36,549 bases of DNA from Candidatus Effluviviaceae Genus IV sp. (GTDB lineage Bacteria > Joyebacterota > Joyebacteria > Joyebacterales > Joyebacteraceae): contig WJLY01000224.1 of assembly GCA_014728245.1 (NCBI GenBank), positions 1 to 36,549 of the forward strand, given 5' to 3'. The translations under genes and the position numbers were made by a program. Below are positions 9,965 to 36,437 of the stretch, piece by piece; the first letter of the stretch is position 1; the number at the start of each line of letters is the position of its first letter. The notes beneath the pieces are model-generated. The model saw nothing but the letters and a program-made list of their open reading frames with translations. It was not told where the DNA came from and did not search any database.

Positions 9965-10118
9965 GAGAGGTGGACCCCCTTGAGAGGATCGCACGAGGAT
10001 CGCTCTCAGTACACGGGGGTCTTGGAACATCCGGTCCCGGCAGAAGCTCGATGCCTCGTGCACCCCCCACCGGCGAATGGTGCAGTATATCTCTTGTGAA
10101 CCTGGAGGAAACACCGAA

Positions 10119-13649: not shown

Positions 13650-13692
13650 AACGCCCGGAGCAGGTCTCCCCCGCTCCGGGCGTTTGTGTTTC
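13650..13692. terminator. Probable bidirectional intrinsic terminator between convergent genes
   Basis: 12-bp inverted repeat AACGCCCGGAGC/GCTCCGGGCGTT, T-rich on the right and A-rich on the left. Confidence 0.75.
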
Positions 13693-13725
13693 TCCGGCTT
13701 CTCGCGCCGGTCTGCGCTCTACTTC

Positions 13726-14709: not shown

Positions 14710-14793
14710 GTAAGCTCTCCTTTCGCCCCTCTCCCCGAGCGCGTCCAAGAGCCGCTCCCAGGGTCCATCAGAAGCCTGGTCGTGATCGACCTG

Positions 14794-21130: not shown

Positions 21131-21928
21131 TCAGACACAATAGTCACTTGCGATGCTCCGAGCGGCCTCTTCCTCTCCATCGCCCAGTTCGTCATGAACA
21201 AAAGCGATCCTCCACTCTCGTTCGAATCCCCGAGTCATGGCCTCCGCCACCTCGTCGAAACGCGGCCTGCGTCCAAGGAGGGTCTCGACGTCGGTCGTCG
21301 CCCTCTCCAGTGTCTCGCGAACACGCGCCCTCCGATCGTCCGGAATGCGCAGGAACTCGACGATCCGCGCGTGGGTTCCGTCCAGCAGCACCGAGCCGTG
21401 CTGGAGCACCGCGCCGGCAAGCCGCCGCTGGGCGCTGCCGACGAGCTTCCTGCCCCCGGCCAGGATCTCGTACCTGCCCGCGCTCGCGAAGCAGGGCGGG
21501 GCGGCCGCCTCGGGCCTCGGCCCGGACACCCCCCCGACCTTCTGAAGCTCCGCACGCACGCCGAGGGACTCCAGACCGGAGAGCAGGGCGCGGGAGACGG
21601 CCAGGTAGGTCTCCATGATCGTGCGGCCCAACGTCGCATCAGTTACTGAGCCGACAATCGAGTATGTCAGCTCGCCGGCGTGAAGCACGGCCCTCCCGCC
21701 GGTCGGCCGGCGCACGACGCCTATCCCGGCCCGCCTGCAGGCTTCAAGGTCCAGCTCGCGCTCCGGATCCTGGGAATGCCCGATCGATACGGTCGGGGGC
21801 CGCCAGCCGAAGACGCGAACCGTCGGCGGAGAGCCCTGGGACGCCACGCCTCTCAGGAGCACCTCGTCTATCGCCATGTTCAAGGGTCCCGCGCGGTGTC
21901 CGGTGTTGATTGCGCGCCAGGCACGCAT
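21131..21928 (-). CDS. Lipoate-protein ligase family protein, LipM-like octanoyltransferase
   Basis: Start reassigned to MRAWRAINTG. NMAIDEVLL, VSIG, RRPTGGRAVLH..ELTYS, CF...YE...GRKLVGSAQ...LQHGS; catalytic domain only. Confidence 0.88.
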   Translation of the reverse strand: MRAWRAINTGHRAGPLNMAIDEVLLRGVASQGSPPTVRVFGWRPPTVSIGHSQDPERELDLEACRRAGIGVVRRPTGGRAVLHAGELTYSIVGSVTDATLGRTIMETYLAVSRALLSGLESLGVRAELQKVGGVSGPRPEAAAPPCFASAGRYEILAGGRKLVGSAQRRLAGAVLQHGSVLLDGTHARIVEFLRIPDDRRARVRETLERATTDVETLLGRRPRFDEVAEAMTRGFEREWRIAFVHDELGDGEEEAARSIASDYCV

Positions 21929-22044: not shown

Positions 22045-22725
22045 CTACGGGATGATGTGCAGCCAGTCTGAAAGCAGGAACTGCATCCTGCCGATCAGGA
22101 GCGACACCCTTCCCATCACCGTGTAGCCGAACGACGCTCCGAAGGCCACCATCAGGAACCAGATGCCTAGCCTCGCGAACCCACCCAGCGCGCCCTTGTG
22201 CTCCTTCGAGAAGAAGAAGTAGGTCAACACGGCGAAGACGCCGATGATCGCGGACAGGTTCAGGATGATCGCTAACGGCCCTCCCTCGTTCAGGGGGGTC
22301 GTCATGGTCGCGTGGATCTGCCGCACGAAGTCGCCCTGCCCGAAGCCGGTGATGTTGATCGCGGAGTACATTCCGACGATGAACCCGAGCGACCAGCGGG
22401 AGAGCCAGGAGAGCTTCGGGAAGAACCGGAACAGCATGAAGATCGCGAGTATCCCGGGGAAGATCCTCAGCCACTGGACCGGGTCCTCTCCAGACATGAA
22501 GAGCGGCTCAATGAGCTTGGGGACGAGGGTCTCATGGTACAGGAGGCACAGCCAGTAGGCAGCGCCCAGGCCGACGAAGAGGCTCTCGCCGAACTTGTAG
22601 AGCGGGTTGTCCTTGTACAGGAAGCTGTAGATCGAGAGCGTGAGGATAGCCGCTACCCAGTAGCCCCATACGACCGATGCGGGCGTCCCGGGCGGACCAC
22701 TGAAGACGAGTTCCAACCAGCTCAT
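22045..22725 (-). CDS. Uncharacterised multi-pass membrane protein (cassette gene D, copy 2)
   Basis: LTLSIYSFLYKDNP and FLMVAFGASFGYTVM.R motifs shared with 25557..26402; about 6 TM helices. Confidence 0.85.
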   Translation of the reverse strand: MSWLELVFSGPPGTPASVVWGYWVAAILTLSIYSFLYKDNPLYKFGESLFVGLGAAYWLCLLYHETLVPKLIEPLFMSGEDPVQWLRIFPGILAIFMLFRFFPKLSWLSRWSLGFIVGMYSAINITGFGQGDFVRQIHATMTTPLNEGGPLAIILNLSAIIGVFAVLTYFFFSKEHKGALGGFARLGIWFLMVAFGASFGYTVMGRVSLLIGRMQFLLSDWLHIIP

Positions 22726-22735
22726 GCCACTCTCC

Positions 22736-23581
22736 CTACGCCGCTCTCTCCGAAGCCCTGCGCCGTCCGGAGATGAAGTACGCCAGGTTGCCGAGGAGTA
22801 TGAAGACGACGATCATGGCGTGCACGATCGACTGCGCGTCCATCCCGCTCGTGGCGTCGCCCGGCGCCCCGATCAGCGTCTCGTACTCCGCCGCTCCCTT
22901 GAGCCCGCCCAGCAGCCCCACGAGCTGCTTGCTCTGCACGTAGGGATAGAAGTTCGGCGCGCCCACCGCGGTCGTTCCCGAGCCAAGCGTCACCTGGAAG
23001 CGACTCTGCACCTGCTGGACCCACTCCCGCGTGCCGGGCGTCCCGGCGGAGACCTCCATCACCATCGCTATGTCGTCGAAGTTCCGCACATCCCGCATGA
23101 TCGGGAGTTCGCGCACCGGCGTGCCGCCGTAATCGGACGGGAACGTGTTGGGAATGCTCGCGCCCATACCCAGAAGCGTCACCGTACCGCCGGCCATGTA
23201 CCCGAGGTTGACGTAATCGACTCCGTAGTCCTTGCCGTACTCCTCTGCCAGCGGATTGAGCGCCGCCTCGACGAGCGGCGGCGATGCCGGCCACAGACAG
23301 GCGACGACCAGGCGGAGGTCCTTCTCGAAGGCGTGCCTGATGAACGTCTCCACCATCGGCTGCAGCTCCGGCATCGTGTCGGGGCTGTAGTCCCCGGCGA
23401 GCATCACGATCGAGCCCTCGGGAACCGCCTCCACGGCGTCGTAGATGCCCTGCACGGGCGGGGAAACGTCGATCGGCAGCCTCATCGGTTGTATGAGAGG
23501 CCACGCCACGGCCAGGAAGATCAGCGCGAAGATGATCCTGCGGTCGATCCTGCCGATGGCGGCGGTCTTCGACTTGGCCAT
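22736..23581 (-). CDS. Uncharacterised protein with two TM anchors around an alpha/beta domain (cassette gene C, copy 2)
   Basis: DRRIIF, DY.P.T.PEL.PM, YG.DYV.LG, GLLGG..GAAEYE, GMD.QS motifs shared with 26455..27297. Confidence 0.85.
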   Translation of the reverse strand: MAKSKTAAIGRIDRRIIFALIFLAVAWPLIQPMRLPIDVSPPVQGIYDAVEAVPEGSIVMLAGDYSPDTMPELQPMVETFIRHAFEKDLRLVVACLWPASPPLVEAALNPLAEEYGKDYGVDYVNLGYMAGGTVTLLGMGASIPNTFPSDYGGTPVRELPIMRDVRNFDDIAMVMEVSAGTPGTREWVQQVQSRFQVTLGSGTTAVGAPNFYPYVQSKQLVGLLGGLKGAAEYETLIGAPGDATSGMDAQSIVHAMIVVFILLGNLAYFISGRRRASERAA

Positions 23582-23595
23582 TGACCGGACTCCCC

Positions 23596-24240
23596 CTACT
23601 TCTCACCGCCGAGATACGAGCGCTCGATTCCGAGTATGATGCGGAGGCCCATTGCCATGACGCCCAGGGCTGCTCCCATGAGAATGCCGCGGAAGGCCGC
23701 CATATTCGGATAGCCCATGATCGTCTCCGTCAGCCACGGAAGTGTCGCCTTCTCCGGAAGGGTCCTCGTCATCCACTGGCCGATGGGGACACGCCCCAGC
23801 ATCACGATGATCGCCGCCACCAGCAGCAAGCCCGCCTCCGCCGACCGCAGCCTGAACGCCCTGTAGGCGGCCGACGCGATGAAGAAGGCCAGAAGCGAGA
23901 ACATCGTGGCCTGGAGCGGCACCTGCATGTTCATGAACATCCAGTTGAAGGGCGAGCCCTCCTCGATCGTACCCCACGGCCCACCGAAGCCGAACATCAC
24001 GGCCATCGCGATGAGGGTGACGATGCTGTATCCCCAACCCTCGCTCTTTCTGCGGATCTTATGGTAGTGGACACGCAGGAGATTGCCCCAGCCGAGCAGG
24101 ATCGACGCAGCAATGACGATCGTGCCCCACTGCTTCATCTCCTCGGCGAGGCCGGAGACCCTGTGATAGGGCACGAAGAAGTCGACCAGCATGAAGATGC
24201 CGATCAGGAAGGTGATTGCCAGCGGTATCTCTCGTCTCAT
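23596..24240 (-). CDS. Uncharacterised multi-pass membrane protein (cassette gene B, copy 2)
   Basis: ATMFSLLAFFIASAAYRAF, MLGRVP, PNMA..RGIL.G, GIER motifs shared with 27340..27969. Confidence 0.85.
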   Translation of the reverse strand: MRREIPLAITFLIGIFMLVDFFVPYHRVSGLAEEMKQWGTIVIAASILLGWGNLLRVHYHKIRRKSEGWGYSIVTLIAMAVMFGFGGPWGTIEEGSPFNWMFMNMQVPLQATMFSLLAFFIASAAYRAFRLRSAEAGLLLVAAIIVMLGRVPIGQWMTRTLPEKATLPWLTETIMGYPNMAAFRGILMGAALGVMAMGLRIILGIERSYLGGEK

Positions 24241-24253
24241 CTCCGGTCCTCAG

Positions 24254-25468
24254 CTACAGCGTTTCGAACCAACTCACAAACGCGTCCCAGCCCACCAGGT
24301 TGGCGACGACACCTGCGCCCATCAGCGCGATCGAAAGCGCCTTCATCCAGTCGGAGCCCTTGAGGCTGCCGAGGAGCTTCGGCTCCCTCGACAGGTAGGC
24401 GCTCGCCGCGTACAGCTCCTCGCCCATCAGAGTGAAGTCGCACGCAGTCACGAAAAACGGAAGCTGCGACACCATCGCCGTGCCGGCCACCTGTATGGCG
24501 CCGGCCTCGAAGCCGGTCTCGGCCAAAAGCAGCGACTCCGCCCAGAAGGCGCCCAAGTACAGGTTCGCCGCGGGCTTCTCCCTGAGCATGATGCCGTTCA
24601 CCGCCGCCGCGAAGGCGAACTGCGCGTCCGACAGGTAGCGGATGTTGTCCCGGTTGTACGCGTCCGGGTGGCCCGCCTCGGCGTAGGCCTCCTTGACGAC
24701 CTCCTCCGCCGCCGACATCACGACCGCCCTCGCGGTCGGGACGATGAGCGGCGTCTCGTAGCGGGCCGTGATCTTCGCCACGTGCGAGAGGATCGTCAGG
24801 CTCGCGATCGTCATGATGTTCTCTATCTCGCCGATGCCGGGAACGTACAGCACCGGCCTACCCATTTCGGTCGCCCTCCCCACCGCCTCCTCGATCGCGT
24901 TCAGTCCGGGTATGCGCCGCACGAAGAGCGACACGCCCTTCCGCGCGAGCCGGGTGAAGATGAGGACGAGAGCGAAGAACGTGGTCATGAGCACGAAGAC
25001 CGAGGTTCGCCTCGGTTGCCAGAAGCTCGCCCTCCCCCGGACGGGACCGGCCGTGGCCGGCTCAGACACATTGCCGGAGTCTATGGCGTACACCGAGTAG
25101 AAGTACGGTTCGCCGGGCTCCGCATCCCTGTCGACGTAGTAGTCCGTTCCGGCGGGGACGACGCCCACCGTATCGCCCGGGGCGCCGGCCGACTTCGATC
25201 TCATTATGACGTAGCTCAGCACGTCGGCTTCCCCCGCGCCGTCGTCCGCGGAGGGCGTCCATGAGAGCTGGATCTTGTTCCCGGAGTCATTGTCGCCTAT
25301 GTGGTCGCTTGCGGACGCCCGGGTGGGCGGCGCCGGCGGAACCGTATCAGCAGCGGCATCGGCGATCTCGAGAAGCTCCTCGACGTCGATGCCCGCGTCC
25401 TGCGCCGCCGCCATGCAGGTCGCCGCCGGAATAAGAAGCGTGGTGCAGAATGTAGTGAGGAGGTTCAT
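24254..25468 (-). CDS. Signal peptide + FN3 + TM + DUF6754-like domain protein (cassette gene A, copy 2)
   Basis: FN3-like (LSWTPS.DD...YVD...YFYSVYA), TM, RRIPGL..IEEAVGRATEMGRP, AESL.LAE, GEELYAASAYLS. DUF6754 assignment is from recall. Confidence 0.82.
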   Translation of the reverse strand: MNLLTTFCTTLLIPAATCMAAAQDAGIDVEELLEIADAAADTVPPAPPTRASASDHIGDNDSGNKIQLSWTPSADDGAGEADVLSYVIMRSKSAGAPGDTVGVVPAGTDYYVDRDAEPGEPYFYSVYAIDSGNVSEPATAGPVRGRASFWQPRRTSVFVLMTTFFALVLIFTRLARKGVSLFVRRIPGLNAIEEAVGRATEMGRPVLYVPGIGEIENIMTIASLTILSHVAKITARYETPLIVPTARAVVMSAAEEVVKEAYAEAGHPDAYNRDNIRYLSDAQFAFAAAVNGIMLREKPAANLYLGAFWAESLLLAETGFEAGAIQVAGTAMVSQLPFFVTACDFTLMGEELYAASAYLSREPKLLGSLKGSDWMKALSIALMGAGVVANLVGWDAFVSWFETL

Positions 25469-25556
25469 TGCCCGTCCGCGCTCCGGACTAGTTCATCGAA
25501 CCGGGGCCGACTCGCGCCTCGCGAGGTCGCAGAGCAGGCTCTGCCGCCCCGCCCCG

Positions 25557-26402
25557 TCAGTCCACGAGATGCAGCCAGTCGTGAAGAAGGAAGCCTACTC
25601 TGCCGATCAAGAGCGAAACGCGGGACATCACCGTGTATCCGAACGACGCCCCGAAACCAACCATCAGGAAGACGATGCCCACGCGGGCCAGCCCGCCCAG
25701 AAGTCCACGGTGCCGCATCGAGAAGAAGAAGTACGACAGAGTGCCCAGAAGACCGATCACGAGCAGCACGTTGGTCATCGTCACGACGCCCGCGCTGGTC
25801 AGAAGCGACAGCACGACGTAGCCGGCGTACGCTATCACCGCCGCGAGAACGACGGCGACGACGCGCAGGATCTTGTTCCCCGCTCCGATGCTGCGCTTCA
25901 CGACGAAGAGATAGGTCATGACGGCGAATATCACCACGCCGAGCGCCACGTTCGACATGTTCGCCATCGCCGCCGACTCATCCACGCCCGCCAGAGGAAG
26001 CCCGTTCGCGCCGAGCTGCCTGATCACGCGGGCCTGCATGACGGGCGATATCCCGAGTCCCGCGTATCCGCCGACGTATATTCCGAGCGGCCAGCGTCCC
26101 ACCCATGCGACCTTGGGGAAGAACCGCATGTAGAGAAGGAGCCCCAGGAGCCCCGGGACGAACGCCATCCACCACGCGCCGCTCAAAAAACCGATCGACT
26201 CGTCGCCGACTCTGAGAAGGAACACGGGAGCGACGACGTTCGGACTGATATAGTTCCAGTAGTAGATGACCAGATAGTAACCCGCGGAGACCCCGACGAC
26301 GAGATGCTCGGCGAACTTGTAGAACGGATTGTCCTTGTAGAGGAAGCTGTAGATGGACAGCGTCAGGATCGCCCCGATCGTTGTCCAGAAGAGCTCCGCC
26401 AT
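25557..26402 (-). CDS. Uncharacterised multi-pass membrane protein (cassette gene D, copy 1) with an extra TM hairpin
   Basis: Paralog of 22045..22725 with an insertion of about 60 aa. Confidence 0.85.
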   Translation of the reverse strand: MAELFWTTIGAILTLSIYSFLYKDNPFYKFAEHLVVGVSAGYYLVIYYWNYISPNVVAPVFLLRVGDESIGFLSGAWWMAFVPGLLGLLLYMRFFPKVAWVGRWPLGIYVGGYAGLGISPVMQARVIRQLGANGLPLAGVDESAAMANMSNVALGVVIFAVMTYLFVVKRSIGAGNKILRVVAVVLAAVIAYAGYVVLSLLTSAGVVTMTNVLLVIGLLGTLSYFFFSMRHRGLLGGLARVGIVFLMVGFGASFGYTVMSRVSLLIGRVGFLLHDWLHLVD

Positions 26403-26454
26403 CGATTCCTCCGCTCGATCTGCCTGAACTGCGGCCCGGCCGTCATCACCGGTC

Positions 26455-27297
26455 TCACGCAGTCTTCTTCTCGGATTTCCGCGTAGCGAAGTACGCCACG
26501 TTGCCGATCACGATGAGCAGGATGATCAGCATGTGGATGATCGACTGCGAGTCCATACCCCGCGTTCCCTGGTCCGGCTGCTCTATGAGCGCCTCGTATT
26601 CGGCCGCTCCACGCATACCGCCAAGGAGCCCCTCCAGCTGATCGGCGCCCAGATACGGATAGTAGTCCGTGGCCATGACGGCGGTCACGCCCGCGGCGAC
26701 CATCTGCCCGTAGGGCTCGTGGGCGTAGTAGATCCACGACTCGGCGTAGGCGGAGCCCGCCAAGGTTATCACAAGCGGGATGTCGTCGTAGTTGCGAACG
26801 CCGTCCATGACCGGAAGTCGGGTCAAGGCCGTTCCGTATGCGTCCTCGGGGAACGCGTTCCTTATGTTCACGCCCATGCTCAGGATGACCGCGGAGATCC
26901 CGGGCTGGAAGCCCAGGAAGACGTAGTCCTCGCCGTAGACGCGGTCGTACTCCTCGGCGGCCTGCAGGAGGGCCCGCTCGGCCAGCCCGTAGCCGGCCGG
27001 GTGAAGCGTGATGACGACGACATTGACGTCGTTCTCGAACGCGTGGCGCAGAAGCGCCAGCGTCATCGGTTCCAGTTCCGGAAGCGTCGCCGGCGCGTAG
27101 TCTACCGACAGCAGCAGCGGCTGCGAGTTTGCTGGCAGGCTGTCCATCTTCTCGTAGAGCCTCTGCACGGGAGAGGTCACCGTCACGGGCAGCCCCAGAG
27201 GCAAGATGAAAGGCACGACCACTGCGATGGCCACGAGCAGGAAGATCCACCTGCGGTCGACCCTGAGGATCTTGTCGAATATGGTGTTGCCTTCCAT
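26455..27297 (-). CDS. Uncharacterised protein with two TM anchors around an alpha/beta domain (cassette gene C, copy 1)
   Basis: Colinear paralog of 22736..23581; ATG 27297 after GGGAGAG. Confidence 0.85.
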   Translation of the reverse strand: MEGNTIFDKILRVDRRWIFLLVAIAVVVPFILPLGLPVTVTSPVQRLYEKMDSLPANSQPLLLSVDYAPATLPELEPMTLALLRHAFENDVNVVVITLHPAGYGLAERALLQAAEEYDRVYGEDYVFLGFQPGISAVILSMGVNIRNAFPEDAYGTALTRLPVMDGVRNYDDIPLVITLAGSAYAESWIYYAHEPYGQMVAAGVTAVMATDYYPYLGADQLEGLLGGMRGAAEYEALIEQPDQGTRGMDSQSIIHMLIILLIVIGNVAYFATRKSEKKTA

Positions 27298-27339
27298 CAA
27301 ACTCTCCCGAAGAGCGGGCCTGAGCGCCGCGCGGTCGAC

Positions 27340-27969
27340 CTAGTCGCGTCCGCCCATCCACGCCCGCTCGATACCGAGCACGATCTTGAGCGCCGTCGCC
27401 ATCATCCCTAATCCCACACCGATGAGTATCCCGCGCTTCGACGCCATGTTGGGCACCTCCAGGATCCACCGCGTCGCCACGGGTATCTGATCATGTATGA
27501 GTTCCCCAAGCGGCACGCGGCCCAGCATGACCACCGTCGCCGCCACGAGAAGCAGCGTGGCCTCGAGCGTCCTGGCCTTGAACGCGCGGAAGGCCGCGGA
27601 CGCGACGTAGAACGCCAGGAGCGAGAACATCGTCGCCTCGATCGGTACCTGAACGTTCTGGAACATCGCATCGAAGGGCGAGCCCGGGGAGTGGTGCGCC
27701 GGGTGGAAGAAACCCAGCCCGATCATTGCCGCAAGCCCGATGAGCGCGACGAAACTGTAGCCGCGGTCGTCCGCCCTGTTCCTGATCTTGTGATAGTGGA
27801 GCTTTATCAGACTGACAGTCCCCAGCAGGAACGCGAACGCCAGCAGAGTCATGAGCCACGAGAGCAACCGTTCCTGGAAGTCCTGCACGGCAGAGTGTGG
27901 GATGAAGTACTGGACCGCCGTGAAGACGCCGGCTATGAAGCAGAGCATGAGAGGGACCTGTCGGCGCAT
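27340..27969 (-). CDS. Uncharacterised multi-pass membrane protein (cassette gene B, copy 1)
   Basis: Colinear paralog of 23596..24240 (MRRQVPL vs MRREIPL; ATMFSLLAF; GIER). Confidence 0.85.
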   Translation of the reverse strand: MRRQVPLMLCFIAGVFTAVQYFIPHSAVQDFQERLLSWLMTLLAFAFLLGTVSLIKLHYHKIRNRADDRGYSFVALIGLAAMIGLGFFHPAHHSPGSPFDAMFQNVQVPIEATMFSLLAFYVASAAFRAFKARTLEATLLLVAATVVMLGRVPLGELIHDQIPVATRWILEVPNMASKRGILIGVGLGMMATALKIVLGIERAWMGGRD

Positions 27970-27992
27970 CTGCTCAATCCTCTATGCGAGAG

Positions 27993-29246
27993 CTAGCCCG
28001 TCATATAGAGAGGGGCCATGAAGTCTGAAGCTATGACGTCGGTCGCCGCGAGCGTGGCCACGATGAAGCCTATGATCAGGAGGACGCCCACGATGAACTT
28101 GGCCGTGTCCTGTCCCTTGAGCCCGCCGAGGAGCACCGGCTCCCTCGACAGGTAGGCGCTCGCCGCGTACAGCTCCTCGCCGATGATCGTGTAGTCGCAA
28201 GACGTGATGAAGAAAGGAAGCTGCGTCACCGCGTCCGTGCCCGCGATCTGAATCGAACCTACGGACGCGCCGGTCTCGGCCAGCACCAGCGACTCGGCGA
28301 AGAACATGCCCATGTAGAGAATCGTGGCCGGGCGCTGTCGGACCATGATGCCGTTCACGCCGGCCACGTATGCGAACTGGCTTCTCGTCAGGTAGAAGAC
28401 GTCGTCCTCGCTGTAGGCCTCGGGTCGTCCCACCTCCGCGTAGGCCTCACGCACGACCTCCTGCTCGACCGCCATGACGATCGGGTCGGCGCAGGGGACG
28501 ATCAGCCTCGTGTTGTACTCGGCCGTCTTCTTGGCAACCTCGCCAAGAATATTGATGGCCGCGATCGTGGCCACATCCGAGATCGACGACAGCCCGCTGA
28601 TGTAGAGGATCGGCTTCCCCATCTCTGTGGCGCGGCCCACCGCGTTCTCGAGCTCGTCGAGGCCTGCAAGGCGCCGGATGAAGAGCTCCTTGCCCGCGCG
28701 GGCCGAGTTCACGAAGTAGACGATCGCCGTCACGAAGATGATGACGCCGATCAGGACGTTAACCCGGTCGGTGTTAAACCACTGGGGGAACGACGAGGTC
28801 GGACCCGCGATCTCCGAGAACGCGTAGCTCTCCCCGTCTGTGGCGGCGACCCTGTGGTAGTACTCGAGATCGTTGTCGAGACCGGTGTCCCTGTACTCCG
28901 TGATACCGGGAGGCACTCTCCCCGCGAACGCGAACCCCGTGTCAGGATCGGTCGTCCGGTAGATCTCGTACGAGACGATCTCGCCCTCCGGCTCGTCTAC
29001 GGATGGCTCCCATGAGACCACCACGGCGCCGCCGCGGTCGTTCTCCGCGTCGACCGACACCAGGCCGGTCGGCGGAGCGAACGTCGGAGCCGCTACGGTG
29101 TCCGCCTTGACGTCCTCCACGTCGGCCTCGTCCTGGGCGAACACGCCCGCCGGACACAGAAAGAGGGCCGCGAGCGCCAGGAACAAGGCGAATACGGCCC
29201 AACCGGCGGATCTTGCAGGGGTCGAGCGCTCCCCGTCTGCGAACAT
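27993..29246 (-). CDS. Signal peptide + FN3 + TM + DUF6754-like domain protein (cassette gene A, copy 1)
   Basis: Paralog of 24254..25468; AVGRATEMGKP, GEELYAASAYLSREP; ATG 29246 after GAAAGGA. Confidence 0.82.
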   Translation of the reverse strand: MFADGERSTPARSAGWAVFALFLALAALFLCPAGVFAQDEADVEDVKADTVAAPTFAPPTGLVSVDAENDRGGAVVVSWEPSVDEPEGEIVSYEIYRTTDPDTGFAFAGRVPPGITEYRDTGLDNDLEYYHRVAATDGESYAFSEIAGPTSSFPQWFNTDRVNVLIGVIIFVTAIVYFVNSARAGKELFIRRLAGLDELENAVGRATEMGKPILYISGLSSISDVATIAAINILGEVAKKTAEYNTRLIVPCADPIVMAVEQEVVREAYAEVGRPEAYSEDDVFYLTRSQFAYVAGVNGIMVRQRPATILYMGMFFAESLVLAETGASVGSIQIAGTDAVTQLPFFITSCDYTIIGEELYAASAYLSREPVLLGGLKGQDTAKFIVGVLLIIGFIVATLAATDVIASDFMAPLYMTG

Positions 29247-29322
29247 CAACCATTCCTTTCGCTAGTCACGAACGGCGGGGGGCGCCGTTCCGCGGCTCGC
29301 GCGTTCCAGCAAGTGAAATCGG

Positions 29323-29351
29323 AAAGTAGCAGACTCCTTACCGACTGTCAA
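29323..29351 (-). promoter_or_regulatory. Sigma70-type promoter with extended -10 upstream of the duplicated cassette
   Basis: Minus strand TTGACA (29351-29346), 17-nt spacer ending TGC, TACTTT (29328-29323). Confidence 0.62.
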
Positions 29352-29421
29352 GCCATTTGTCGCCGTCCCGCCCGCCGAAACGCCCTCCGGGGGGCGACTC
29401 ATCCGCCGGCGGTCGCAACCG

Positions 29422-30549
29422 TCACCGCTCGATCATCTCCACGTTGGCGCGCGGCAGCAGCACCTCCTGTCCGTCGTCCAGCTTCACGGAGAGAACGCGC
29501 ACCATCGTCTCGGACTCCATCTTCCGGAGCTCGTTCGGCAGATCGACGACCTCGCCCAGGCTCCCGAAGTTCGGCTCGCGGATCACCCTGATCCTGCTCC
29601 CGACGTCGAGCCCCATCGAGGCGACGTGACCCTTCTCGACCTCCTCCTTCCGAACGCCCTCCAGTGGAACCACTATCTCGGGCCTGATGACTCCGGCTCT
29701 TATCTGGGTCGCGCCGTTGATCGACGCCTTGCGCCCCTCGCGCGACCTGAGAAGGTCGAACGTGGCCGGGGCCATGGACATCTCGCCGAAACCCTCTGTG
29801 AGGATCAGCGTTGAGCGAAGGTCCTCCTGCCCGGTTATGGCCACGCCGATGTCTTTCCCGAGAAGCTCCCGGAGATCGGGATCGTCGAATCCGCCGACCA
29901 CGACGCCCGACGCGCCGACCTCCATCGCTCTCTGCAGCGCATCCCACGTCACGTGAGATCCGCCGACGAGCACCTTGTCCTCGCACGAACCGTCGATTCG
30001 CGAGGCGTCGAGCGGATCGGCCGGCCCGTCAACGAGGACCTTGATCTCCCCGGTCCGCTCTCCGCCGACGCCGAAGATCCCCTGGATGAATGAGCCGACC
30101 GTCTCGACCACGACTCCCTCTTCCTCGATGATGTCCACCACCTTGCCGTCGATGTAGGCGTCAATCTCGATGGGGGTCGGAGGCTCGCGGAAGATCGCCT
30201 GCCCGGTGATCTTCGAGACGCTCTCGAGCGTACCATCGCACGGCGCCGGCACTCTCGACTTGAACAGCCCGAAGAATCCCTGCGTCTCCGCGACCGCCTC
30301 TCCCTTCCCCACCTTCTCCCCGTCCTCCTTCTTCATCACGGTCGGGAGATCCTCCGCGGGAATGCCGAGCTTGCTCGCAATATTGAGAAGCTGCACGTTG
30401 CCCGGAAGGTGCGTGCGGGCGACGACCGTGTCCGACCTGACATCGTCGCCCTTGTTGACTAGGACTTCTCCCTTGATGGGCAGCCTCCGGTCCTTCCTGA
30501 AGACCGTGAGCTCGGCCACCTTGAGTCCCGGTGTGTACGCGTGTGCCAT
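29422..30549 (-). CDS. Uncharacterised soluble protein with barrel-sandwich-hybrid-like repeats and a KOW/SH3-like C-terminus
   Basis: LVNKGDDVRSDTVVA, KEDGEKVGKGEAVAE...APCDGTL, AYIDGKVVDI half-motifs; LTEGFG; GSRIRVIREPNFGSLGEV. GAGGAG RBS. Confidence 0.78.
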   Translation of the reverse strand: MAHAYTPGLKVAELTVFRKDRRLPIKGEVLVNKGDDVRSDTVVARTHLPGNVQLLNIASKLGIPAEDLPTVMKKEDGEKVGKGEAVAETQGFFGLFKSRVPAPCDGTLESVSKITGQAIFREPPTPIEIDAYIDGKVVDIIEEEGVVVETVGSFIQGIFGVGGERTGEIKVLVDGPADPLDASRIDGSCEDKVLVGGSHVTWDALQRAMEVGASGVVVGGFDDPDLRELLGKDIGVAITGQEDLRSTLILTEGFGEMSMAPATFDLLRSREGRKASINGATQIRAGVIRPEIVVPLEGVRKEEVEKGHVASMGLDVGSRIRVIREPNFGSLGEVVDLPNELRKMESETMVRVLSVKLDDGQEVLLPRANVEMIER

Positions 30550-30621
30550 CTTCTACTCCTCGGTTCTTCCTCAGTCGGCGCCGCTCCACAGAGCCATGGT
30601 TTCTGCGTCCGGGAGGCCGCG

Positions 30622-32424
30622 CTACTCGGTCGGGTAAGCGTCGAACGCCTTCGCCCAGCGCTCCAGCCTGGCGATGCGCTCCTTCTCGTCGGTCGGGAGC
30701 TCGAACGGCCTGCCCCTCGTGTCGACCATGAGGCCCACGACTCCGCCCGACACGGTGCGTTCGACCGGCTTCGCCGGCCCGTCTCCCAGATCGAAGCCGC
30801 GCGCCGGCGAGAGCTTGATCTTCGCCTTCTCGTCGATACCCAGCGGGTAGGCCCGCATCTCGCCGTACGGGATCTCCTCACTGACGCTCGATCCGTCGGG
30901 CATCGTCGCCTCGATCTTGACACACGGCTTGCCCTCCTGTGACGTCCCCACCGGGGCGATCAGCGGTCCCAGATGTATCAGGCAGTCCTTCTCGAAGACC
31001 TCGGTGGCCGCCTTCTGGTGGACCTCGGCGAGCACGCCGAGCTGCGGCATCATGAAGATCGAGTCGACCGCCAGCCTGGTTATGCCCTCAGGCAGGAAAC
31101 CGTCGATCAGCATCATGGCCGCCTGCTGCCTCCTGGGCGCGTGCGAGAGGACCCCGCCGGACCCCACCAGGATGTCCAGGTCCATCATGTCGACGAGCGT
31201 AGCGCCGGACGACGACTGGTCGAAGGCCTCCGAGATCGTCCTCTCCTGCTGCACACCCTTCAGGCTCACCGCGAACGACTTGTGCTGCTCGAAAGCGAGC
31301 CTCAAGGCCTCCCTGGCAATCGCCTGCTCGAGCTTGAGGTCGCCGAGCGCCTGAGGAACGGTCGTCGGCCGGATCATCTTGTTCTTGATCCGGTTCCGGA
31401 CCTCCAGCTCGCCCAGACCGAACGGGACCCACCTCATCACGTTCTCGATCCCCGCCTCGGCCAGCACGTTCGAGACCGAGTAGCTCATGCCGAGGTTGGC
31501 GGAGACCGTCCTGTTGAACGTATCCTTGAAAACGGAGAATACGTCGGTCGTGGCGCCGCCGATGTCGACTCCGACCGCCTCGATCCCCTGCTGCTTGGCG
31601 ATCGTCTCTATGAGCGAGCCGACCGCGCCCGGAGTGGGCATGATGGGAGCGTCGGTCCAGCCCATCAGCTTGTCGTACCCCGGCGCCTGGGCCATCACGT
31701 GCTCCATGAAGAGATCGTGTATCTTGTCCCGCGCCGGCCCCAGGTTTTCGCGCTCGAGGACCGGCCGGAGGTTCTCCACGTTGTAGAGCACGGTCTTTTC
31801 CTCGAGGAGCTTCCCGACCTCCTCACCGGCGTCGACGTTGCCCGCGTAGATGACGGGCAGGTCGTAGCCCGTGCCGAGCCGCGGCTTCGGATCGGCGGCC
31901 GATATGATCTGCGCAAGCTCGACCACGTGGGTGATGGTGCCACCGTCGATGCCCCCGGAGAGGAGGATCATGTCGGGCCGGAGGTGGCGGATGCGCTCGA
32001 TCTGCTCGTGCGCCAGCCTCCCGTCGTTCGAGGCGAGCACGTCCATCACGATCGCACCTGCGCCGAGCGCCGCGCGCTGCGCGCTCTCGGCCGTCATGCT
32101 CATCACGACGCCCGCCACCATCATCTGCAGGCCGCCTCCCGCGCTCGAGGTCGAGACGTAGAGATCGACGCCCCGCTCTCCGTCGTTCGGGTGTATGATC
32201 TTCTCTCCCTCGAGGACCTCGTGTCCCGAGAGCTCCTCCACCTCCCGGATCGCGTTCAACACTCCTCGGGTCACGTCCTCGAAGGGCGCCTCCACCGTGG
32301 TGGGGGCCTCTCCCCTAACGATCAACCTGTACTCGCCGTCAACGAGCTTGATCAGGATCGCCTTCGTCGTTGTGCTGCCGCAGTCAGTGGCGACGATCGC
32401 TCTGACCTTGCCGTTCTCACTCAT
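30622..32424 (-). CDS. glmL: GlmL (glutamate mutase L)-like ASKHA/actin-fold ATPase with C-terminal extension
   Basis: DCGSTTTK (phosphate 1), TSSAGGGL, ALGAGA, PDMILLSGGIDGG, MPTP, VDIGGATTDVFS (phosphate 2), RTVSANLGMS, GSGGVL. ATG 32424 overlaps the upstream stop. Confidence 0.8.
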   Translation of the reverse strand: MSENGKVRAIVATDCGSTTTKAILIKLVDGEYRLIVRGEAPTTVEAPFEDVTRGVLNAIREVEELSGHEVLEGEKIIHPNDGERGVDLYVSTSSAGGGLQMMVAGVVMSMTAESAQRAALGAGAIVMDVLASNDGRLAHEQIERIRHLRPDMILLSGGIDGGTITHVVELAQIISAADPKPRLGTGYDLPVIYAGNVDAGEEVGKLLEEKTVLYNVENLRPVLERENLGPARDKIHDLFMEHVMAQAPGYDKLMGWTDAPIMPTPGAVGSLIETIAKQQGIEAVGVDIGGATTDVFSVFKDTFNRTVSANLGMSYSVSNVLAEAGIENVMRWVPFGLGELEVRNRIKNKMIRPTTVPQALGDLKLEQAIAREALRLAFEQHKSFAVSLKGVQQERTISEAFDQSSSGATLVDMMDLDILVGSGGVLSHAPRRQQAAMMLIDGFLPEGITRLAVDSIFMMPQLGVLAEVHQKAATEVFEKDCLIHLGPLIAPVGTSQEGKPCVKIEATMPDGSSVSEEIPYGEMRAYPLGIDEKAKIKLSPARGFDLGDGPAKPVERTVSGGVVGLMVDTRGRPFELPTDEKERIARLERWAKAFDAYPTE

Positions 32425-32800
32425 CCGCACCTTCCTTAAGCGCTTTCGCGGCGCGACGCTCCTCGCGCCTTCGTTTACGCTCCTCGCGCTCCTTCTTGCG
32501 GCGCTCGGACTCCACTTCCTCTATCTTCAGAAGGAGATACTCGATGTTCTCCCTTTCCTCAAGTATCTCGATGAACTCGTCGTAGGTCTTGAAGTTGAAG
32601 ATCGACTGCACGATCGGCTGGAAGAATATGAGCGCCTGGTTCCCGAGAAACGAGAGCGGCTTGGCCGACTCCAGGAACAGTATCGCGGGCGCCGTCATCC
32701 TCCATTCCACTATCCTGGCGGCGAAACGATCCATGATCTCCCGGTGCTCCGGGCGGGGGCGCTCCTCATTGCTCCTGTCCTTCATCGCCCACATCGGCAT
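32417..32800 (-). CDS. Small hypothetical protein
   Basis: Overlaps both neighbours; PAILFLESAKPLSFLGNQ core, LEERENIEYLL, charged tail. Start uncertain (32800 or 32785). Confidence 0.75.
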   Translation of the reverse strand: MPMWAMKDRSNEERPRPEHREIMDRFAARIVEWRMTAPAILFLESAKPLSFLGNQALIFFQPIVQSIFNFKTYDEFIEILEERENIEYLLLKIEEVESERRKKEREERKRRREERRAAKALKEGADE

Positions 32801-33212
32801 CGGTCTCTCTCCGCCTCTCCACCATCTTCCTCACGAACTCGATCACTTCTTCGCGGTTGTCGTGGAACTGCAGCGACAACCCTCTGAACCTGGCCAGCCT
32901 CGACGGCTCCTCGAACGGGGAGAGCAGCACTCCGTCCTCGTCGACCGAGTAGCTCCTGAAGTCGCTCCAGCGCTTCTCCCTCTTCGACACCACTCCCTTG
33001 ACCGACACCGTCTCCTCGGTCAGCTCATACCGGGTGGGGAGGAAGAACCCCGCCACCTGCCCCCAGACCAGAGCCACCGCGACGATCGTGAAATAGCCGG
33101 CGTTGAGCCAGGTCTGGAGGAACCACGCCGTCAGTACGACGAAACCTATCGCGACCGCCGCCCTGAGCGGGTGAAGCACCATCGGCCATGAGCGCCAGGA
33201 GAGCGGCTCCAC
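32766..33212 (-). CDS. Hypothetical membrane protein (2 TM plus a bacterial PH-like beta domain)
   Basis: Two hydrophobic helices, then FLPTRYELTEETV...KRWSDFRSY...VLLSPF; starts 3 nt after the gcvPB stop. Confidence 0.72.
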   Translation of the reverse strand: MEPLSWRSWPMVLHPLRAAVAIGFVVLTAWFLQTWLNAGYFTIVAVALVWGQVAGFFLPTRYELTEETVSVKGVVSKREKRWSDFRSYSVDEDGVLLSPFEEPSRLARFRGLSLQFHDNREEVIEFVRKMVERRRETDADVGDEGQEQ

Positions 33213-33215
33213 CGG

Positions 33216-34706
33216 CTACTCGTCCTCCCACACGACGTCCAGCTCCCTCGCCGCGCGGGCCTCGTCGAGACGGCCGACGGGCGTTTCGACGGGCGCTCCG
33301 GTCACCGCTTCGGGGTCCTCTCGTACCTCGTCGGCGATCCGTCGCATCGCCGCGATGAACCCGTCGAGCGACCGCCTGCTCTCCGTCTCCGTCGGCTCGA
33401 TCATGAGCGCCTCTTTCACGATCAGAGGGAAGTAGATCGTCGGCGCGTGCAGGCCCATGTCGAGCAGGCGCTTCGCCACGTCCAGGGCCCTGACGCCCTC
33501 TTCCTTCTGGCGCGAGACCGACAACACGAACTCATGCTGGCATCTGCCGCCGTACGGAAGCTCGTAGACGTCTCTCAGACTCTCCTGCAGATAGTTCGCG
33601 TTCAGAACGGCGTTCTCCGCAACGCGCCGGAGCCCCGAAGGACCGAGAGAGAGTATGTAGGCGTAGGCCTTGACCATCACCAGGAAGTTCCCGTACCACG
33701 AGTGCACCTTCCCGATCGATCTGGGCCTGTCGTAGTCCATGTAGTACTCGACGCCGCCCGTCCGTCGCTCGTCCCTCGCGGGAAGCGGTCCCGGCAGGTA
33801 GCCGGCGAGCGGGGACTTCACCCCGATCGGGCCTGAGCCGGGGCCGCCGCCCCCGTGCGGAGCCGAGAACGTCTTGTGCAGATTGAAGTGCATCACGTCG
33901 AAACCCAGGTCTCCGGGACGCACGACGCCCAGCGACGCGTTCAGGTTGGCGCCGTCGAGATATGCGAGGCCGCCCGCATCGTGGACGATCCCGGTCAGCT
34001 CGTCGACGCGTCGCTCGAACACGCCGAGCGTGTTGGGATTCGTGATCATCACGCCGGCCGTGTCCTCGTCCATGAGCTCGCGCAGGCGTTCGATGTCGAC
34101 CCTGCCGTCGGGCCCCGACGCCAGCTCGACGGGACTGAATCCCGAGAGCGCGAGGCTGGCGGGGTTGGTGCCGTGGGCCGAATCGGGCACGATCACCTTG
34201 GTCCGCCTCTCCCCTCTGTCGCGCATCACGGCGCGGAAGATGAGCATGCCCGCCAGCTCTCCCGAAGCGCCGGCGGGCGGTTGCAGGCTCACCGCGTCCA
34301 TGCCTGAGATCTCGCACAGATGCCGGGAGAGATCGTACATGAGGGCGATCGCCCCCTGGCACTCCGAGGGCTCCGTCTCGGGATGCAGCCGCGTGAAGCC
34401 TCGGAGCCCGGCCACCTCCTCGTTGATCTTGGGGTTGTACTTCATCGTGCACGACCCCAGCGGATAGATCGCCTTCTCGATGTGGTGGTTCATCTCGGCG
34501 AGCCTCATGAAGTGCCGGGCCACCTCGGGCTCGGTAAGTTCGGGGAGAGCGGGCGGGGCCCCTCGCAGGTTCTCCTCGCCGAACGCCTCGGCCGGATCGA
34601 TCGGCTCGACGTCCGGCTCGGGTAGTCGCCACTTCCCTCGCCCGGGCGAGCTGAGCTCGAAGACCGTGGGCTCCGGCGCCCGCTTCTCTCGCAAGAGAAC
34701 TGTCAC
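33216..34706 (-). CDS. gcvPB: Glycine dehydrogenase (decarboxylating) subunit 2
   Basis: YPLGSCTMKYNPK, SAHGTNPAS, TNPNTLG, PLP-lysine motif HFNLHKTFSAPHGGGGPG, MIEPTETES. Confidence 0.97.
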   Translation of the reverse strand: MTVLLREKRAPEPTVFELSSPGRGKWRLPEPDVEPIDPAEAFGEENLRGAPPALPELTEPEVARHFMRLAEMNHHIEKAIYPLGSCTMKYNPKINEEVAGLRGFTRLHPETEPSECQGAIALMYDLSRHLCEISGMDAVSLQPPAGASGELAGMLIFRAVMRDRGERRTKVIVPDSAHGTNPASLALSGFSPVELASGPDGRVDIERLRELMDEDTAGVMITNPNTLGVFERRVDELTGIVHDAGGLAYLDGANLNASLGVVRPGDLGFDVMHFNLHKTFSAPHGGGGPGSGPIGVKSPLAGYLPGPLPARDERRTGGVEYYMDYDRPRSIGKVHSWYGNFLVMVKAYAYILSLGPSGLRRVAENAVLNANYLQESLRDVYELPYGGRCQHEFVLSVSRQKEEGVRALDVAKRLLDMGLHAPTIYFPLIVKEALMIEPTETESRRSLDGFIAAMRRIADEVREDPEAVTGAPVETPVGRLDEARAARELDVVWEDE

Positions 34707-36058
34707 CTGCCGTCCCCCTGTTCCACGACCGCCCTTATCGCCGAGGTAAGCGTGTCAACGTCGTGTTTCCCGTGCGTCTCGGATACCGACACCAGGAGGC
34801 AGTCGTCGAGCCCCTCATAGTAACACCCGCAGGAGAGGCCCGGCCAGATCCCCGCCTCTGCGAGCTCAGCCTTCACGCGACGCGCGTCGAAGGGCAGCCT
34901 CACGGCGAACTCGCGGAAGAACGGCCGGGGGAACCTGAGCGAGACGCCGTCTATCCGCGACAGGGCCGCCGCCGCGTAATGCGCCGTCGACGATACGCGA
35001 AGCGCCAGCTCGCGGAGCCCGCGCGCCCCGAGGAGCGACATGTACACGGTCGCTCCCAGGGCGACGAGCGCCTGGTTCGTGCAGATGTTGGATGTCGCCT
35101 TCTCCCGTCTGATGTGCTGCTCGCGTGTCTGTAGCGTCATCACGTAGCCACGTCGGCCGTCGGCGTCCTCCGTCGCGCCGATTATCCTTCCGGGCATCTT
35201 CCTGAGGTACTTCCGGCGTGTCGCCATGAAGCCCAGGAGCGGACCGCCGTAGCCCATCGGCGCGCCGAGCGACTGCCCCTCGCCGACAGCGATGTCGGCG
35301 CCGTATTCGCCCGGCGGAGAGAGCAGAAGAAGCGATAGCGGATCGACCACGGCCACGAGCAGCGCGCCCGCGGAATCCGCCTGCCGCCCGAGCTCCTTCA
35401 TGGGCTCGAGCGACCCGAAGAAGTTCGGATGCTGAACGATCAGCGCCGCCGCCCCGCTCAGGGCCTCTGCCGCCGAGGCGGGATCGGTCGCTCCTTCTCC
35501 GACGGGAAGCTCCTCGATCTCGACGTCGAGCGAGGACACGTACGTCCTCAGCACGTCGCGGAACATCGGAGACAACGTGCCCGCAACCGCCAGCTTCCGC
35601 CTCTTCCTGACGTCGACCGCCATGAGCGCCGCCTCCGCCGTCGCAGTGGCGCCGTCGTAGAGCGACGCGTTGGCCACCTCCATGGCCGTGAGGCGCGCGA
35701 CCATCGTCTGGAACTCGTAGATCGCCTGGAGCGTGCCCTGGCTCGCCTCCGCCTGGTACGGAGTGTAGGCCGTGTAGAACTGGGGCATGCCGGTGATTCG
35801 GGAGACCGCGGCCGGGACGTACGTGTCGTAGACCCCACCTCCGAGGAAGGACAAGACGTCGTCGGCGGTCCGGTTCATGCTCGCGAGCTTCATCATGTGG
35901 CGATGAAGCTCCTGCTCCGAAAGAGGGCCCGGAACGTCGAGCGGGCGCCCGAGCCGTAGGTCTTCGGGAATGTCCTCGAAGAGCTCGCCCGGGTCCTTCG
36001 CCCCGATCCGACGGAGCATGTGCTCGCGGTCGCTGTCGGTGTTGGGAACGTACGGCAA
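34703..36058 (-). CDS. gcvPA: Glycine dehydrogenase (decarboxylating) subunit 1
   Basis: SFLGGG, TAYTPYQAEASQG.LQ, NASLYDGAT, LQTREQHIRREKATSNICTNQ. TTG start. Confidence 0.97.
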   Translation of the reverse strand: MPYVPNTDSDREHMLRRIGAKDPGELFEDIPEDLRLGRPLDVPGPLSEQELHRHMMKLASMNRTADDVLSFLGGGVYDTYVPAAVSRITGMPQFYTAYTPYQAEASQGTLQAIYEFQTMVARLTAMEVANASLYDGATATAEAALMAVDVRKRRKLAVAGTLSPMFRDVLRTYVSSLDVEIEELPVGEGATDPASAAEALSGAAALIVQHPNFFGSLEPMKELGRQADSAGALLVAVVDPLSLLLLSPPGEYGADIAVGEGQSLGAPMGYGGPLLGFMATRRKYLRKMPGRIIGATEDADGRRGYVMTLQTREQHIRREKATSNICTNQALVALGATVYMSLLGARGLRELALRVSSTAHYAAAALSRIDGVSLRFPRPFFREFAVRLPFDARRVKAELAEAGIWPGLSCGCYYEGLDDCLLVSVSETHGKHDVDTLTSAIRAVVEQGDGR

Positions 36059-36065
36059 GAGCGGC

Positions 36066-36437
36066 TTATCCCTTCGTGTATTCCTCGTACTCCGAGGCGG
36101 TCATCAGGCCGTCGAGCTCGCCTGGGTTCTCGAATTCGATTCGGAGGATCCAGCCGGCCCCCTGGGGGTCGCTGTTTATCGCGCCCGGCTCCTCCTCGAG
36201 GTTCTCGTTGACGGCCGAAACCTTCCCCGAGAGCGGCGCGTAGATCTCACTCACGCTCTTGACCGACTCGACCGTCGTCAGGCTCTCGCCCTGTGACACG
36301 TCGGTCCCGACCTCGGGCAGCTCGACGAACACGATGTCGCCCAACTCGCCCTGGGCGTAGTCGGAGAGCCCTACAGTCGCCTGATCGCCTTCGACCCTGA
36401 CCCACTCGTGCGTCTTAGCGAACTTGAGATCGTCCAT
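36066..36437 (-). CDS. gcvH: Glycine cleavage system H protein
   Basis: HEWV, GLSDYAQGELGDIVFVELP, lipoyl-lysine motif VESVKSVSE, INSDP..GW. Confidence 0.98.
   Translation of the reverse strand: MDDLKFAKTHEWVRVEGDQATVGLSDYAQGELGDIVFVELPEVGTDVSQGESLTTVESVKSVSEIYAPLSGKVSAVNENLEEEPGAINSDPQGAGWILRIEFENPGELDGLMTASEYEEYTKG

Follow-up and report, generated by a model that had tools for sequence, protein, structure and literature searches.

The closest described relatives of the ATPase reported here are GlmL, the methylaspartate mutase accessory protein, and Or-4 of ornithine degradation (PF13941; NF040745, NF040744, and TIGR01319), with which it shares its Pfam family and the motifs of the ASKHA (actin-fold) ATPases. 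The ATPase is encoded in a 36,549-nucleotide stretch of DNA (the window), an entire contig (WJLY01000224.1) of the 2.75-Mb, 325-contig, 90% complete assembly of Candidatus Effluviviaceae Genus IV sp. Its gene lies within a block of 12 genes at 22045-33212 that also encodes two small proteins (h148 and h127), a 375-residue hybrid-barrel/KOW protein (P375), and two copies of a four-gene membrane cassette, the genes of which are called D, C, B, and A. Labels beginning with G denote genomes (G000 is the window's own) and those beginning with L denote loci. Unlike GlmL and Or-4, this GlmL-like ATPase falls below the cut-offs of all three NCBIfam GlmL-type models (229.6, 220.4, and 166.4 bits against 475, 600, and 204.05, respectively), has an extension of ~120 residues C-terminal to the Pfam domain, is never found beside a mutase gene and, in every genome examined, is found beside the gene for P375. 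The nearest likenesses of P375 are to the N-terminal hybrid barrel of RnfC and NqrA (PF13375, PF05896) and to lipoyl/biotinyl domains (PF00364), which it weakly resembles over residues ~56-119 in most homologues; a structural neighbor cluster in the ESM Atlas, labeled RnfC_N and NQRA_N, aligns with a TM-score of 0.57. However, all of the P375 matches to these families are sub-threshold, the modified lysine is not conserved and the remainder of the protein matches nothing. Pfam scans of the block proteins gave no Rnf or Nqr membrane subunit, no FMN_bind domain, and no flavin or Fe-S family.

Other described systems resemble this one by analogy of organization. Group II ECF transporters and TonB-ExbBD likewise serve several exchangeable modules with one energizer (G001 and G002 each have one P375 against five matches to DUF6754, the conserved domain of D), but there is no sequence relationship, no ABC, EcfT, MotA/ExbB, or ExbD component, and each module has four proteins of its own. 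MacB, FtsEX, and LolCDE are similar in having periplasmic domains between transmembrane helices together with a cytoplasmic ATPase. In contrast to these, B has no MacB_PCD or FtsX match in any of 87 homologues (87/87) and the ATPase has the ASKHA rather than the ABC fold, whereas a true MacB-type permease at 1544-2755 of the window was readily matched by Pfam.

The block is best explained as a single copy of a bacterial system that is ancient, widespread, and uncharacterized and has six core protein families. To judge from sequence, nothing beyond the ASKHA fold of the ATPase, the FN3 domain of D, and a generic hybrid barrel ties the system to a characterized family, and we would rate it as outside every described kind; the DUF6754 domain, for which the comparison was one of sequence only, is the place where this novelty could still fall. 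Literature on DUF6754, PF13941, and GlmL as an ASKHA ATPase was sought and none was found; the papers listed for ASKHA ATPases and these phyla were community surveys, and none of the GlmL papers listed, to judge by their titles and the beginnings of their abstracts, concerns this protein. Our preferred reading, to which we give a probability of about 40%, is that the ATPase and P375 form a shared energizer that would couple ATP to several paralogous membrane modules.

The 12 genes of the block are contiguous and all of their open reading frames lie on the minus strand (Table 1), as the earlier note on this DNA had claimed, with two overlaps (35 and 14 nucleotides) and gaps of 10-172 nucleotides. 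They form part of a tight minus-strand run from 36437 to 21131 in the order gcvH, gcvPA, gcvPB, h148, h127, GlmL-like, P375, D1-C1-B1-A1, D2-C2-B2-A2, and LplA-like. A simple terminator scan found nine terminator-like sites in the block versus 5.7 ± 2.6 in shuffled sequence, which is no excess. The claimed duplication of the four-gene cassette was also borne out: the copies are paralogous, with 45% identity for D1/D2, 48% for C1/C2, and 45% for B1/B2, and A1 and A2 are 38% identical over 192 residues and 66% identical across their C-terminal 71 residues. The reported lack of Fe-S and heme motifs held as well: all 12 block proteins are devoid of CxxC and CxxCH motifs, with one conserved Cys in all. 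The statement that none of the 12 genes can be assigned needs a qualification: A, B, and C are without a family, but D1 and D2 belong to Pfam DUF6754, a family of unknown function.

The order of the cassette genes is nearly invariant. A metagenome scan based on a 14-sequence alignment gave 588 confirmed relatives, and in the best 80 loci, which were kept, 293 of 295 neighboring pairs follow the order D>C>B>A>D, the two exceptions being one extra B and one doubled D; an array comprises one to three cassettes. A genome locus scan that used poorly conserved N-terminal patterns gave eight true loci (labeled Ignavibacteriales, Ignavibacteriaceae, Zixibacteria, GN15, Bradymonadales, and unclassified bacterium), all of which hold the D-C-B-A order in one to three tandem copies. 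Four of these eight have beside the array a GlmL gene whose product is 61-70% identical to that of the window. P375 is present in all five of those genomes that were searched (5/5), the fetched loci hold part of GlmL beside P375, and in G002 the coordinates place P375 next to GlmL. Across phyla the GlmL-like protein is 54-70% identical to the products of other P375-linked genes, and P375 proteins are 37-58% identical. The small gene h127 is a recurrent accessory gene of the system, with homologues at seven other loci, where it precedes GlmL (L026, L028, L046, L100, L114, and L115) or D (L011). The h148 gene is an accessory found only in some lineages, with homologues directly upstream of h127-GlmL in L026, L028, L100, and L115. 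Clustering of all flanking open reading frames gave no further widely conserved neighbor and no conserved regulator.

The system is also near-universal in some lineages. DUF6754 was found in 30 of 31 species genomes of the window's phylum, which typically have a tandem pair beside P375 and one more copy at another site, and in all 151 sampled genomes of the phylum of G001 (151/151; loci labeled Ignavibacteriota), mostly with five matches each, but in none of 14 control genomes. This near-universal presence in whole phyla argues against a defense island, and PADLOC gave no family for the 10 block proteins scanned (D2 and C2 were outside the scan). The window's own assembly has two DUF6754 genes. 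Of the four other genomes in its genus, three have three such genes (in G032 the third is on another contig, L027), and a third cassette may be unassembled in the 90% complete genome. The names of database matches add Cloacimonadota, Edwardsbacteria, Coatesbacteria, and Dependentiae, and in the ESM Atlas D is listed from Planctomycetota and P375 from Planctomycetota, Chloroflexota, Zixibacteria, Fidelibacterota, and Latescibacterota.

Where the system is patchily distributed its parts almost always occur together. The Bradymonadales-labeled locus belongs to genome G185, in whose phylum DUF6754 was found in 23 and P375 in 22 of 201 genomes: 22 have both, one has DUF6754 only (G245), none has P375 only, and 178 have neither. 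In about two-thirds of the carriers DUF6754 and P375 lie no more than ~2 kb apart; in the others they are on other contigs or far apart, and there GlmL and P375 are still paired, sometimes together with h127. Within the window's phylum, both DUF6754 and an orthologous P375 are missing from G016 (92% complete). The earlier note had allowed that the families might prove unlinked in other genomes, and the fixed D-C-B-A order, the GlmL-P375 adjacency, the co-occurrence, and the joint absence in G016 speak otherwise. These data support a functional link between the DUF6754 modules and GlmL-P375, and in part they bear out the earlier note's reading of the block as an ATP-coupled transport, secretion, or signaling complex.

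The cassettes of a genome are old paralogues. In a tree of 50 D proteins, the first-position D proteins of all 11 triple arrays (11/11) and those of two single cassettes form one group (SH-aLRT 93, under the 95 mark); one of these two single cassettes is next to GlmL-P375 and the other is divergent from GlmL-P375. The second- and third-position D proteins fall into other groups that span the labeled phyla. Since the first-, second-, and third-position groups each span phyla, the paralogue types predate the split of these lineages. The D2 protein of the window groups with one third-position type (support 99) and the placement of D1 was not resolved in the tree.

Assignment of the ATPase is firm. 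The GlmL-like protein matches PF13941 (MutL) with E 4.4e-127 and 425 bits (cut-off 27), its residues 12-483 covering the whole model (positions 1-450 of 450). Matches to the ASKHA phosphate-1, phosphate-2, and adenosine motifs were found at residues 16, 289, and 423. The actin-fold ATPase named from the letters alone is thereby confirmed. Pfam also reports a weak similarity to hydantoinase/oxoprolinase, and a search of PDB sequences gave nothing significant for either the GlmL-like protein or P375.

It might be asked if this protein is just an ordinary accessory protein or reactivase of a B12 mutase that happens to lie beside unrelated membrane genes. Its membership of the Pfam MutL/GlmL family would fit, as would the four B12-binding domain matches in the window's own genome, all on other contigs. 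This explanation seems to us highly improbable. The protein scores under the three GlmL-type cut-offs given above, the window contains no mutase gene, and the 90% complete genome contains no match to glutamate mutase E (PF06368) and none to lysine aminomutase A (PF09043), the latter being a weak test because the control genomes also gave none. Moreover, the co-occurrence and synteny with DUF6754 hold across phyla.

In the window P375 has only sub-threshold Pfam matches, to RnfC_N, Biotin_lipoyl, and FeoA, and among 14 homologues weak matches were found to Biotin_lipoyl in 13, to RnfC_N in 10, and to KOW in one. Mean column identity over these 14 proteins is 69%, with strongly conserved Gly-rich motifs, and the column in which the lipoyl or biotinyl lysine would stand is K/R/T/S. 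The ESM Atlas contains a fused MutL+P375 cluster of 995 residues, to which the P375 model aligns with a TM-score of 0.89 (by query). Fused GlmL-like+P375-like paralogues of ~870-900 residues are also encoded in many genomes of the window's phylum (L022:9056-11662 in G016, L023, and L024), although none was found in the window's own genome. Their GlmL parts are 44-46% and their P375 parts ~26-39% identical to the window proteins, and they match Pfam MutL plus, over the hybrid-barrel part, DUF2118 above its cut-off. The neighbors of the fused genes at L022-L024 appear to vary, and no conserved neighbor was recognized. GlmL and P375 probably act as a single soluble unit.

The D proteins provide the system's most informative membrane component. 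Both copies match DUF6754 (PF20539; cut-off 27) strongly (397.6 bits, E 2.5e-119 for D1 and 380.9 bits for D2). The external FN3 domain predicted in the earlier note is indeed present: D1 scores 26.2 bits against a cut-off of 25, and in D2, which at 20.3 bits is under the cut-off, the FN3 sandwich is visible in an AlphaFold2 model built from an 87-sequence alignment (pLDDT 91.8, pTM 0.76). This model consists of an N-terminal helix, FN3 at residues 49-144, a transmembrane helix at 152-176, a six-stranded, Rossmann-like alpha/beta domain at 187-360, and a final transmembrane helix at 363-392. The architecture of D1 was read from the model of its paralogue D2 plus hydropathy; the D1 record in the ESM Atlas begins at residue 2, and a D1 AlphaFold model from 14 sequences (pLDDT 62.8, with a poor DUF6754 part) was discarded. 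Positively charged residues after the first transmembrane helix and before the last predict that the DUF6754 domain is cytoplasmic. No other element of the system is as conserved as this domain, which has 73% mean column identity over 87 sequences and 34 invariant positions, among them clusters of R, E, and D. The conservation of D, GlmL, and P375 suggests that an interaction or an active site is under constraint.

No relative of the DUF6754 domain outside its own family emerged from the searches made. A sequence search of the PDB with D gave FN3 matches only, and a profile search with the cropped cytoplasmic domain gave no chain at E values up to 10. Among the 37 Foldseek hits listed for the whole D2 model, all were FN3-aligned or poor, judged by their descriptions and TM-scores, and an ESM Atlas search with the domain returned only DUF6754 clusters (0.86-0.87). 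The profile of the domain recovered 2115 clusters at 50% identity, 879 of these at E <= 1e-30. Among the 120 longer D forms listed, none has PF13941, and hence no fusion of the ATPase to the module was seen.

B, like D, had been taken to be polytopic, which proved incorrect: both proteins have two membrane helices that flank a large soluble alpha/beta domain. In B this conserved domain is ~220 residues long, both termini are positive, and the positive-inside rule predicts that it is periplasmic. None of the 87 B homologues gave a family match beyond noise, and neither sequence nor profile searches of the PDB with B gave a significant match. B1 has 3037 database relatives; among the 120 listed, none has a Pfam domain or an informative name other than "Candidatus Eisenbacteria sp." (74% identity), which is a label only. 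Hydropathy gave A and C ~5-6 hydrophobic segments, and certain Arg, Glu, and Asn residues are invariant in them (77 A and 96 C homologues). None of the window's A, B, C, or D proteins met a curated transporter cut-off in Pfam or NCBIfam, nor did A-D match the MotA/ExbB and ExbD families (PF01618, PF02472). Across the 77 A, 87 B, and 96 C homologues only scattered matches were found, judged by E value and in no case better than 2e-5, each in less than one-fourth of the members. The statement that these membrane proteins match no characterized transporter or enzyme therefore holds for Pfam, NCBIfam, PADLOC, and PDB sequences. The soluble domains of D and B were considered as possible duplicates of one another and rejected (hhalign probability 2.2%), as were the polytopic C and A proteins (0.2%). 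Predictions of a complex of A2, B2, C2, and D2 (residues 148-404) scored 0.67, 0.65, and 0.64, and a control in which chain B was replaced scored 0.70, so that the scores bear on binding in neither direction.

From gene families, gene order, paralogy, co-occurrence, gene fusion, ATPase motifs, predicted topology, and the fold class of D, we infer complex formation, docking, ATP coupling, direction, and substrate as follows. In the membrane module D-C-B-A, A and C are polytopic membrane proteins. B would expose its conserved alpha/beta domain to the periplasm, held between its two membrane helices. D would combine the conserved cytoplasmic DUF6754 domain, likewise held between two helices, with a periplasmic ectodomain that varies (FN3 in the window, and a BamB-like beta-propeller or longer regions in other genomes). 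Genomes have one to about five old paralogous modules and, as far as counted, a single soluble GlmL-P375 unit. This unit may dock on the cytoplasmic face of the modules, for which the D domain is the obvious candidate, and ATP turnover would then be coupled to what happens across the inner membrane or beyond it, either translocation of a substrate or work transmitted to the periplasm and envelope.

Several observations weigh against a shared energizer. P375 or GlmL was found upstream of the array in only 6 of the 30 metagenome loci having at least 3.5 kb before the first D, and 9 of 10 fully flanked single cassettes stand alone. G245 and G031 (65% complete, window's phylum) have DUF6754 without P375, and the P375-like clusters of the ESM Atlas are commonest in Chloroflexota. 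The co-occurrence counts come from related genomes that are not independent trials, and so overstate the number of independent events. G016, which is without DUF6754, keeps a fused GlmL-P375 paralogue, indicating that the pair can work without modules, at least as a paralogue. The characterized relatives of GlmL are regarded as accessory proteins of mutases, and ASKHA ATPases are not known to energize membrane transporters. Finally, DUF6754 may have an enzymatic role, and physical contact between the proteins of the system is something we infer.

The architecture of D could also be that of a receptor having a sensory ectodomain and an output domain, in a signaling array with A, B, and C as accessory proteins and GlmL-P375 as the effector. 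A variable ectodomain, a transmembrane helix, and a conserved cytoplasmic domain are what such a receptor would have, and the presence of several paralogues per genome would fit as well. We consider this improbable, as Pfam and NCBIfam report no kinase, cyclase, HAMP, PAS, or receiver family in any component, no regulator gene is conserved beside the system, and three co-inherited membrane partners in fixed order are atypical of receptors.

The ectodomains of D lend themselves more readily to an envelope-directed machine, in which the modules would act on periplasmic or outer-membrane components (assembly, tethering, or remodeling) and the ectodomains of D plus the B domain would engage envelope partners. 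The part of D that precedes the cytoplasmic domain varies from ~60 to ~1050 residues, whereas the cytoplasmic domain is nearly constant, and the ectodomains have protein-interaction folds, FN3 and PQQ_2/BamB-like beta-propellers, the latter in 19 of 53 long forms. Forms of D of ~950-1010 residues are frequent among entries named Cloacimonadota. That the system is near-universal in some phyla is as expected of a housekeeping envelope function. In two Ignavibacteriales genomes, G002 (L108:9074-16119) and G005 (L109:1707-8762), the genes for GlmL, a secreted protein, and P375 are followed directly, on the same strand, by a complete Tol-Pal cluster. The order of this cluster is TolQ, TolR, TolA-like, TolB, Pal, and TPR, with TolQ and TolR readily recognized by Pfam; the secreted protein encoded between GlmL and P375 (253 and 262 residues in G002 and G005, respectively) belongs to no family. 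However, ~490-540 nucleotides separate P375 from TolQ, and tblastn with Ignavibacterial Tol queries only found no Tol genes beside GlmL-P375 at L110-L116. The 92% complete G016 lacks the system, which is thus not essential there, and propellers and FN3 domains are also found on sensors and enzymes. We regard this account as somewhat unlikely.

A different use of the same parts would be metabolic: the D-C-B-A modules would be secondary transporters of several specificities driven by ion gradients and GlmL-P375 a soluble ATP-dependent enzyme of the hydantoinase/kinase type acting on their substrates, possibly lipoate or glycine in the window's lineage. This arrangement would explain why most arrays lie apart from GlmL and P375, and several paralogue types per genome fit different substrate specificities. 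The weak hydantoinase/oxoprolinase similarity of GlmL is consistent with it, and conserved Gly-rich motifs such as those of P375 are typical of enzymes. Gene context adds glycine cleavage and lipoate genes. Orthologues of gcvH-gcvPA-gcvPB lie upstream of the block in L026 and L028 of the window's phylum, and L115:9399-13407 (G004) has gcvPB-h148-h127-GlmL-P375 in the same order as the window, with a P375 that is 56% identical; the single D-C-B-A cassette of G004 lies on a different contig with a second copy of h127 before it (L011). The LplA-like gene that follows the array in the window has counterparts directly after the array at four of the 51 other ends (L025:9173-9922, L054:7863-8132, L056:13478-14092, and L077:4289-4840); L025 is from the window's genus, and L054 is nearly identical to L077. 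Against metabolic coupling, A-D match no transporter family, a cytoplasmic soluble domain as the most conserved part of the module would be unusual for a secondary carrier, most loci are without gcv or LplA context, and the neighbor in G002 and G005 is instead Tol-Pal. Beyond the window, L026, L028, and L115, no gcv gene was found beside the system in the other loci examined. The suggestion in the earlier note that amino acids or peptides may be handled draws on a gcv context that is limited to a few lineages, and we rate it as weak. The gcv/LplA and Tol-Pal contexts are both limited to lineages and therefore neither fixes the function. We think metabolic coupling, too, is on the unlikely side.

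If the linkage reflects one machine with a shared energizer, the ASKHA ATPase plus hybrid-barrel partner would be a new energizing principle, and five membrane or accessory families would be added to the bacterial envelope systems. The system could, though this is doubtful, represent a novel class of inner-membrane machines driven by ATP, in which the ATPase and its partner power interchangeable four-protein modules that reach the periplasm via FN3 or beta-propeller domains, with a housekeeping role in Ignavibacteriota, Eisenbacteria-like bacteria, Zixibacteria, Cloacimonadota, Planctomycetota, and related phyla. Only tentatively would we set this ATPase apart, as a power source, from ABC, AAA+, P-type, and rotary ATPases and from proton-driven stators. 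The mechanistic reading is plausible but unproven, and what the system brings about may be either transport or some process in the envelope. Such a machine would be central to the cells of large lineages, most of them uncultured, in which it is now annotated "hypothetical," usually in three to five paralogous copies. Resolving its function would explain DUF6754 and also the many "glutamate mutase L-like" annotations found outside mutase operons. Since Ignavibacteria, Planctomycetota, and Bradymonadales have cultured members, genetics and biochemistry are feasible. The system is abundant, ancient, and testable, and hence of high interest.

Table 1 Genes of the minus-strand run that contains the 12-gene block (positions in the window)
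Feature	Position	Strand	Description
gcvH	36066-36437	-	Upstream of block; named from translation alone
gcvPA	34703-36058	-	Upstream of block; named from translation alone
gcvPB	33216-34706	-	Directly upstream of block; named from translation alone
h148	32766-33212	-	148 residues; two N-terminal hydrophobic helices and soluble C-terminal part; noise-level Pfam matches only
h127	32417-32800	-	127 residues; hydrophobic hairpin and highly charged C-terminal tail; no family (Pfam, NCBIfam)
GlmL/MutL-family ASKHA (actin-fold) ATPase	30622-32430	-	602 residues; PF13941
P375	29422-30549	-	N-terminal barrel-sandwich hybrid, Gly-rich central part, KOW/SH3-like C-terminus
D1	27993-29249	-	Predicted signal/anchor helix, periplasmic FN3, transmembrane helix, cytoplasmic Rossmann-like DUF6754, C-terminal transmembrane helix
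C1	27340-27969	-	Polytopic, ~6 hydrophobic segments; invariant Arg-rich motif after the fourth; noise-level matches only
B1	26455-27300	-	N- and C-terminal transmembrane helices around conserved domain of ~220 residues; no family
A1	25557-26402	-	Polytopic; conserved N- and C-terminal motifs; internal insertion of ~55 residues relative to A2; no family
D2	24254-25468	-	D1 paralogue; DUF6754 E 3e-114; AlphaFold2 model
C2	23596-24240	-	C1 paralogue (48% identity); no Pfam match
B2	22736-23581	-	B1 paralogue (45% identity)
A2	22045-22725	-	A1 paralogue
LplA/LipB-family lipoate-protein ligase catalytic domain	21131-21898	-	PF21948 E 1.9e-37, PF03099 E 1.3e-17; directly after array

Near the cassettes of other loci, a protein of ~477 residues recurs in six single-cassette loci and in L064 is encoded just upstream of D (L064:6383-7813); its N-terminus is presumably amidophosphoribosyltransferase-like. 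A protein of ~950 residues is common to eight loci and follows the triple array in L004, L008, and L009.

Elsewhere in the window, large open reading frames at 8357-9745 (+), 10077-11579 (+), 11640-13613 (+), 13684-15747 (+), and 15823-18144 (-) have no Pfam match at E <= 1e-5. These are overlapped by long opposite-strand open reading frames in DNA of 62-66% G+C, and thus the coding strand itself is uncertain. Along with the MacB-type permease, Pfam recognizes a HlyD-type adaptor (3560-4942), a TolC-like outer-membrane efflux protein (OEP; 4863-6143), a Yip1-domain protein (6145-6918), TonB (7115-7747) and, at 18226-20985, a TonB-dependent-receptor-like protein with CarboxypepD_reg and Plug domains.

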